From NCBI GenBank assembly GCA_035327585.1, contig DAOLDD010000013.1, positions 5,174 through 69,173 of the forward strand: a stretch of DNA of 64,000 nucleotides, read 5' to 3'. The translations under genes were made by a program, and so were the position numbers. The stretch comes from Kiritimatiellia bacterium (lineage in GTDB: Bacteria > Verrucomicrobiota > Kiritimatiellia > CAIVKH01). This document shows positions 10,041-12,260 of the stretch, in pieces (the stretch's first letter is position 1; every line of letters begins with the position of its first letter). The notes beneath the pieces were generated by a model that was not told the origin of the DNA, did not search any database, and was given only the letters and a program-made list of their open reading frames with translations.

Positions 10041-12260
<2,220 letters not shown>

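Follow-up and report, generated by a model that had tools for sequence, protein, structure and literature searches.

A run of four tandem heptamers that is translated within the conserved gene yyaL is probably a solo copy of the (ACGGAAR)4 arrays that form the arms of a PF05635 cassette family of the Kiritimatiellia; according to this interpretation, the array entered the gene as DNA and persists as a harmless loop. The whole stretch of DNA analyzed, of 64 kb, is referred to here as the window, and the features of the host gene that are required for the argument are the following:

10041 to 12260, minus strand: yyaL, the host gene of the array, encoding 739 aa with a thioredoxin-like DUF255 domain and an alpha/alpha-barrel domain
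11310 to 11337, minus strand: the four tandem heptamers AACGGAA AACGGAA GACGGAA GACGGAA, of the ACGGAAR family, covering residues 308-317, (Q)TENGRRKTE
11304 to 11342, minus strand: the 39-nt block CTG CAA ... TAT GAA (L307-E319), identical in the codon alignment at 37 of 39 positions to the orthologue L003, which is 69% identical

The 739-aa ORF matches PF03190 in Pfam (E 3.5e-75, residues 24-184), and the solved YyaL-type protein PDB 7tkv aligns to its residues 21-671 (E 3e-122). It was assigned to the YyaL/SSP411 family given that it carries the CHWCH motif, with C71-H75 invariant, followed by the alpha/alpha-barrel domain; the orthologues show synteny with the Amidase_3 and DUF1800 genes. 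A preliminary description of this sequence had reported two AACGGAA and two GACGGAA units in frame on the coding strand, and they are read directly on the minus strand, the plus strand at 11310-11337 being TTCCGTC TTCCGTC TTCCGTT TTCCGTT. The codons CAA ACG GAA AAC GGA AGA CGG AAG ACG GAA encode Q308 to E317 and are followed by TAT GAA, with the frame intact. Tandem Repeats Finder gives a period of 7, 3.9 copies and 95% matches, which identifies a four-heptanucleotide element. Across the window, a two-unit ACGGAAR pattern with at most one mismatch occurs 12 times, for an expectation of 0.43, and not one of 100 shuffles yielded as many; therefore, chance is excluded for these units. The window holds four ACGGAAR arrays, counted as one genic and three intergenic. 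A search for an inverted copy or a partner array in or near yyaL found none, so that the yyaL array is a solo direct array. Tandem Repeats Finder also detected a GGTCACC heptamer array of 4.1 copies inside the leuS ORF (window 19929-19956), and three more short tandem repeats (CACGGAGTA, TTAATCCGCG and a GAGGAC-type hexamer) in the divergent region upstream of yyaL (window 12322-12462).

The codons of the array indicate where its periodicity comes from. Third positions in yyaL are 84% G+C, and 7 of the 12 block codons have A or T at the third position, versus 16.5% in the genes of the window (p 0.001); the array includes AGA, which represents 0.6% of the Arg codons of the window, and GGA, which represents 9% of its Gly codons. 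Given the peptide and the codon usage of the window itself, the joint probability of the observed codons is ~1e-7. From these rare codons it follows that the heptamer periodicity derives from the DNA and not from selection on a basic loop, and the origin of the array is at the DNA level. It is highly improbable that selection for a basic loop produced the array by chance, or that the array acts as a phase-variable switch, with yyaL turned off whenever one unit is lost or gained. In favor of these readings, the peptide of the window and that of the orthologue P0012 agree in 11 of 12 residues, and a 7-nt unit within an ORF is what would classically be expected of a contingency locus; against them, protein-only selection would yield the codon choice with the very low probability just given, the loop is absent from nearly all homologues, and there are only four units, in equal number in all three lineages that carry the array. 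In addition, the Logan contigs of a single activated-sludge sample, sequenced in two runs, match the stretch without differences and show zero unit-number variants, bearing in mind that contigs drop rare variants and that these runs are not independent of the source assembly.

The AlphaFold2 model of the yyaL product (mean pLDDT 90) has a helix at residues 291-307, a loop at 308-312 and a second helix at 313-332 that starts within the array, which places the array at the tip of a helix-loop-helix hairpin; in the model it is a surface loop. The view that the repeat is read as a basic loop between conserved helices while the frame is kept is borne out by this model together with the in-frame codons, and the segment maps to the surface, as had been anticipated. 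The array thus adds 5 aa to a conserved protein, in frame and at a surface site, a placement that it shares with Rickettsia palindromic elements. The segment is also lineage-specific. At the site of the 12-residue segment of the window, most of 33 aligned orthologues have L-TGN----xxY, and short spacing is seen in at least 109 of the best 120 database homologues, whose loop is 5 residues shorter than that of the window. Three of these 120 carry 5 additional residues with the sequence QTENGxRKTE, namely the window, P0002 (84% identical) and P0012 (69%), and four carry 4 additional residues with the sequence xRRxxEYE (P0009, P0010, P0015 and P0019). Among the metagenome matches listed that are 41-51% identical, 78 of the 79 readable distant homologues have the short loop, as does the solved homologue 7tkv (5 residues fewer). 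The same residues in distant YyaL homologues would have made the repeat a chance product of conserved protein sequence; these homologues were inspected, and they lack the segment. One metagenome homologue (L035) has an unrelated 15-residue insert (APLPVSSALLEGGAPV-like) in the same hairpin loop, which indicates that the loop is a permissive site.

The heptamer of yyaL is that of a cassette located 10 kb away, whose features in the window are the following:

21682 to 21717, plus strand: left ACGGAAR-type array, directly after the leuS stop codon
21728 to 22267, plus strand: four-helix-bundle gene (PF05635, 23S rRNA intervening-sequence protein family), with the C-terminal tail GKRKTGKRKTGKRKTED encoded by the right array
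22200 to 22250, plus strand: right ACGGAAR-type array, of ~7 units with 8-nt variants
22283 to 22309, minus strand: inverted ACGGAAR array, which can pair with the right array as a hairpin arm

These three arrays substantiate the earlier observation that the yyaL units are those bounding the four-helix-bundle gene. The four-helix-bundle ORF runs through its own right array (window 22200-22267), giving the tail GKRKTGKRKTGKRKTEDMKME. Array-encoded C-terminal peptides are present in 60 of 98 long homologues of this PF05635 protein, and 41 of the 98 contain at least two array 4-mers versus 0.5 in shuffles. In a sister genome (L234) the cassette occupies the same leuS-hppA junction, with the left array and the inverted arm kept and the unit order different; in another Kiritimatiellia genome, a 69%-identical four-helix-bundle homologue lies at a different locus (L229) with a perfect inverted three-unit arm, so that the arrangement of right and inverted arrays was found again in both. 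A Y1_Tnp transposase gene of the IS200/IS605 type is located directly upstream of this 69%-identical cassette (L229 432-1364). Within the PVC group the link between cassette and array is real, and "the cassette's heptamer" is a fair name for the unit in this lineage. In yyaL the repeated heptamer matches exactly the one in the arms of the cassette, here and in the cassette homologues; in contrast to the cassette, the yyaL array has neither an inverted arm nor an adjoining PF05635 gene, the nearest one being those 10 kb away. The simplest account of the yyaL copy is that it belongs to that family as a solo array. A search of the literature for the combination of cassette and heptamer found nothing relevant.

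The array was also read in the DNA of the orthologues. The orthologue P0012 (locus L003) has a perfect array, CAG ACGGAAA ACGGAAA ACGGAAG ACGGAAT, and P0002 (loci L001 and L002) a decaying one, GAA ACGGAGA ATGGAAC ACGGAAG ACGGAAT, whereas the clade with 4 additional residues uses ordinary GC-rich codons with zero heptamers. The unit count is four in all three array-bearing lineages (window, L003 and, decayed, L001). The net gain in yyaL is 15 nt, that is, neither 14, 21 nor 28, so that the sequences do not show a clean insertion of complete units. Among the insert-less orthologues the highest identity is 70%, and a near-identical empty site was not found among the orthologues compared. In the insert-less P0014 the native loop reads ACC CGG CGC CCG GAA TAC and resembles two units; the alignment of the array with the codons of the insert-less P0003 and P0014 is ambiguous, and we claim no boundaries from it.

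These data bear on the possibility of an ordinary microsatellite that originated in situ, local replication slippage having expanded a chance proto-repeat unconnected to the cassette. Heptanucleotides are reportedly the most abundant class of long simple sequence repeats in prokaryotes (Mrazek et al., in the account of that work given in PMC4679880), the native loop of P0014 could have offered such a proto-repeat, three-unit indels occur in the UvrD arrays described below, and ACGGAAR arrays exist in many phyla without the cassette. We regard this origin as quite unlikely, given that the addition of one or two units would shift the reading frame of yyaL, that the heptamer coincides exactly with the one in the cassette arms at a distance of 10 kb and in the cassette family, that four copies are present in all three array-bearing orthologues, and that the 15 nt gained do not amount to a multiple of the heptamer.

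In the gene trees, the window and P0002 group with the insert-less P0003, P0007 and P0014, and P0012 falls in a separate clade with the sequences carrying 4 additional residues. Given that the array-bearing lineages stand apart in the gene tree, a single simple insertion does not explain the distribution. The candidate histories are one gain followed by losses, two gains at the same spot, and one gain with a short lateral transfer. In the last of these, the loop would have been extended a single time and then passed between yyaL lineages on a short tract of homologous recombination, the array of the window being a laterally acquired allele. In its favor, the window and L003 share identical junctions (CTG CAR ahead of the array and TAT GAA behind), and forcing all seven insert-bearers together costs 40 log-likelihood units and is rejected (AU p 0.012), with the reservation that this group was named only after the first tree had been seen, which makes the test weaker than it looks. 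A tree of the N-terminal third gives a different grouping, in which the insert-bearers join P0003 with weak support. The third-position identity to L003 reaches 0.87-0.90 at alignment columns 75-105 (yyaL ~11980-12070), above that to the 84%-identical sister; this stretch could be a recombination tract or could reflect strong codon constraint around the CHWCH motif. Nevertheless, the identity between the window and L003 collapses at once on both sides of the 39-nt block, and the helices on either side show no significantly greater identity to the other clade (all p >= 0.18). Sliding identity, sub-gene trees and the flank-identity test around the array yielded hints of recombination, none of them significant, and we judge lateral acquisition very unlikely.

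Arrays inside genes do change, as can be seen in UvrD. Among 120 Alistipes UvrD orthologues that are 85-100% identical, the segment after RRRFDVRYQQK has three forms: TENGKRKTEN or point variants of it, RDERRET-type repeats made from a different heptamer, and absence of the repeat. The DNA of one of them (L131) is (ACGGAAA)4, and another (L209) has seven units, the three additional ones being ACGGAGA variants. In L210 (501-2942), (ACGAGAG)5 is followed by inverted CTCTCNN x4-5, in frame as ARDERRETRDERKVLNTQLSTLHSPLST, so that a hairpin pair of direct and inverted arrays is translated, and L211 is identical to L210 minus exactly three units. The gain of three units in L209 and the loss of three in L211 indicate that coding arrays change by three units (21 nt, 7 residues), and that whole blocks are replaced; unit number thus varies in UvrD by plus or minus three, and in yyaL it is four in all three array-bearing lineages.

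The array was also looked for elsewhere. A scan for four perfect units, with one genome per species, returned at least 120 stretches, listed from Bacteroidota, Verrucomicrobiota, Planctomycetota, Actinomycetota and Chloroflexota, among others, and also from Desulfobacterota-type MAGs, Treponema, Campylobacter and Neisseria. The 80 loci that were fetched (L085-L164) hold 87 arrays, mostly intergenic and many of them as inverted pairs. Perfect runs of four units predominate (57 arrays), followed by runs of 5 (12), 6 (2), 7 (8), 8 (2), 9 (3), 10 (1) and 13 (2) units, with the qualification that runs below four units fell outside the search pattern. There seems to be an excess of lengths of 4+3k units, on small numbers and in spite of most arrays being intergenic. 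In Neisseria gonorrhoeae DSM 9188 (L143 1670-1858), ~23 AACAGAA units and four AACGGAA units form an intergenic array, just downstream of a porin gene, presumably PorB, and just ahead of a terminator-like hairpin.

Six credible proteins among the 80 loci contain an internal array, and the purine-rich strand is always the sense strand:

L094: RibD, with the array as a 12-residue insert relative to 2b3z
L097: XPB-like helicase, with the array between two domains
L117: double ABC ATPase, with the array in the inter-domain linker
L131: Alistipes UvrD, with the array in the C-terminal linker
L137: 824-aa membrane ORF with no Pfam match, with the array in frame between two predicted hydrophobic stretches
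L163: phage-type protein, with the array in the linker after the N-terminal domain

The fetched loci yielded no antisense in-frame array in a credible protein. Antisense and other long ORFs lying over arrays were rejected as in-frame cases, being off-frame artefacts in high-GC loci or cases where the array is upstream of the real gene. The mean hydropathy of the sense peptides is -3.0, versus +0.3 to +1.0 for the antisense ones. Since both strands of ACGGAAR are free of stop codons, a filter of peptide tolerance is the simplest explanation of the sense bias; a strand-specific mechanism may also produce it. In-frame copies of the ENGRRKT/KTEDG type are therefore not restricted to yyaL, and are present in conserved proteins of other genomes and of phages. 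Seventeen viral contigs carry the array, which is in frame and in the sense orientation in at least six distinct proteins, including some that we take to be terminase-like and prohead-protease-like. In each of two viral contigs (L217 1984-3366 and L218 1688-3070) there are two direct copies 1356 bp apart; the first (L218 1688; L217 3340) is contained in a short ORF that is open for 60 codons ahead of the array and for 107 behind it, and the second (L218 3044; L217 1984) is in frame in a 752-aa protein. Iterated phmmer/hmmsearch and a crude scan for the motif NIAEG...GS..E found no four-helix-bundle gene beside the arrays of the 80 genome loci or of the 17 viral loci, which indicates that the cassette is not needed for such arrays, and an all-against-all BLAST of ORFs found no recurrent neighbor family within 1.5 kb of them.

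The array itself is unusually well conserved. Over the whole gene, the window and L003 are identical at 0.67 of nucleotides and 0.52 of third positions, values against which the identity of the 39-nt block has binomial P of ~1e-4 and 0.005; ordinary neutral decay does not explain this near-identity between diverged orthologues. The phage-type proteins L163 and L223, which are 45% identical, carry perfect arrays at the same linker and are a second instance in which arrays have stayed pristine despite the deep divergence of the homologues. Judged from these sequences, pure neutrality does not predict pristine arrays at either level of divergence. Both cases would be expected if the array were a cis-element maintained at the DNA or RNA level, either as a candidate binding site of an oligomeric protein (e.g. 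the four-helix-bundle protein) or by repeated conversion, translation being a side effect; the cassette arms, which stay heptameric between the window and the sister genome in spite of their different unit order, and the dominant four-unit size in the scan are also in line with this proposal. We consider it unlikely. The sister genome keeps the cassette, yet its yyaL array differs from that of the window by 4 substitutions in 36 nt of the block, about the ordinary rate of the gene; the clade with 4 additional residues has no remaining heptamers; the UvrD arrays decay and swap among closely related orthologues; and neither a partner array nor a conserved neighbor gene was found.

A tentative and rather improbable reading is that the (ACGGAAR)4 tracts are not passive microsatellites, and that an as yet undescribed, dedicated process, with a possible tie to the PF05635 proteins whose cassettes have such tracts as arms, writes tracts of ~28 nt or refreshes them. 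If it exists, such a process would act on intergenic DNA, phage genomes and the permissive loops of housekeeping genes, and would explain why pristine arrays occupy the same site in homologues that are 69% (yyaL) and 45% (phage-type) identical, the dominance of four units, and the purine-rich strand as the sole sense strand.

Returning to the reading that we prefer, a solo cassette-family array that entered yyaL as DNA and not via selection on the protein, its steps may be outlined as follows. Given that growth unit by unit would pass through frameshifted states, a preformed array would have been copied in, probably by template switching or ectopic conversion, and a native heptamer-like patch such as CGG CGC CCG GAA TAC of P0014 might have served as seed or as patch of homology. 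The array would then have persisted because it is harmless, the hairpin tip being longer by 5 residues and presumably neutral: in all three frames the purine-rich strand gives a strongly hydrophilic peptide of Gly, Asn, Lys, Arg and Glu (TENGRRK), whereas the opposite orientation would give a hydrophobic peptide of the FRLPSSV type and would be removed by selection. Afterwards, genic arrays would be limited to steps of three units (21 nt, 7 aa) or to point decay. The preliminary description had taken the yyaL run as evidence that the repeat can be deposited into protein-coding DNA and retained there; the lineage specificity, the rare codons and the shared unit speak for this, while the deposition itself, with its net gain of 15 nt, is a step that we infer.

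The yyaL array is a clean case of the passage of repeat DNA into protein, in which a 7-base repeat, of a length expected to break the frame, appears as a hydrophilic hairpin tip in the product of a conserved, enzyme-like gene. Translated ACGGAAR repeats, such as those found across phyla in RibD, UvrD, the helicase, the ABC-ATPase linkers and the presumed structural and packaging proteins of phages, may be used as a practical marker of permissive protein loops, and call for caution in annotation and alignment pipelines. The arrays also provide a handle on what generates prokaryotic heptanucleotide arrays and on the role of the PF05635 "intervening-sequence" proteins, given that in the Kiritimatiellia this array type travels with one PF05635 subfamily.

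Several known systems resemble the yyaL array in part. Rickettsia palindromic elements are reportedly inserted in frame in conserved genes and translated, at surface sites away from the functional core; they are palindromic units of 100-150 bp and belong to one genus. The tolerance of an in-frame insert is common to both, and to this extent the analogy drawn in the preliminary description stands; it fails for the palindromic structure, given that the yyaL array is a direct array of 28 nt without an inverted partner, in contrast to a palindrome of ~100-150 bp. The STRR heptamers of cyanobacteria and the heptanucleotide repeats of prokaryotes are said to consist of abundant tandem 7-nt units, for which slippage has been proposed. 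The yyaL array shares the tandem 7-nt unit with these repeats, which have been described mainly as intergenic, and units that are not a multiple of three are reportedly under-represented in coding DNA.

Translated heptamer arrays have already been published (PMC2700814, PMC4679880), and the yyaL array adds a further case. The TAACTGA direct repeats are arrays of 2-6 units in Beggiatoaceae, cyanobacteria and Bacteroidetes, mostly intergenic and mainly located just upstream of start codons, with indels between strains in increments of 7 nt; a minority lie inside ORFs, only in the stop-free orientation, and one of them is in a variable surface loop of an RNA polymerase beta-prime-like protein (PMC4679880). 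TAACTGA and ACGGAAR are both short heptamer arrays spread across phyla, mostly intergenic and in some cases within ORFs. The forward strand of TAACTGA contains stop codons, so that its orientation bias is forced; in contrast, ACGGAAR is open on both strands, and its bias must come from peptide tolerance or from the mechanism. In Geobacter metallireducens, the Gmet_H4## elements (GGGACCG) have four tandem 7-nt units at 49 inter- and intragenic sites and were offered as putative regulatory elements, in a study that did not analyze translation, loop position or a link to PF05635 (PMC2700814). The yyaL array has in common with them the four tandem 7-nt units; in Geobacter there are many copies per genome, with a different, GC-rich unit and in another phylum.
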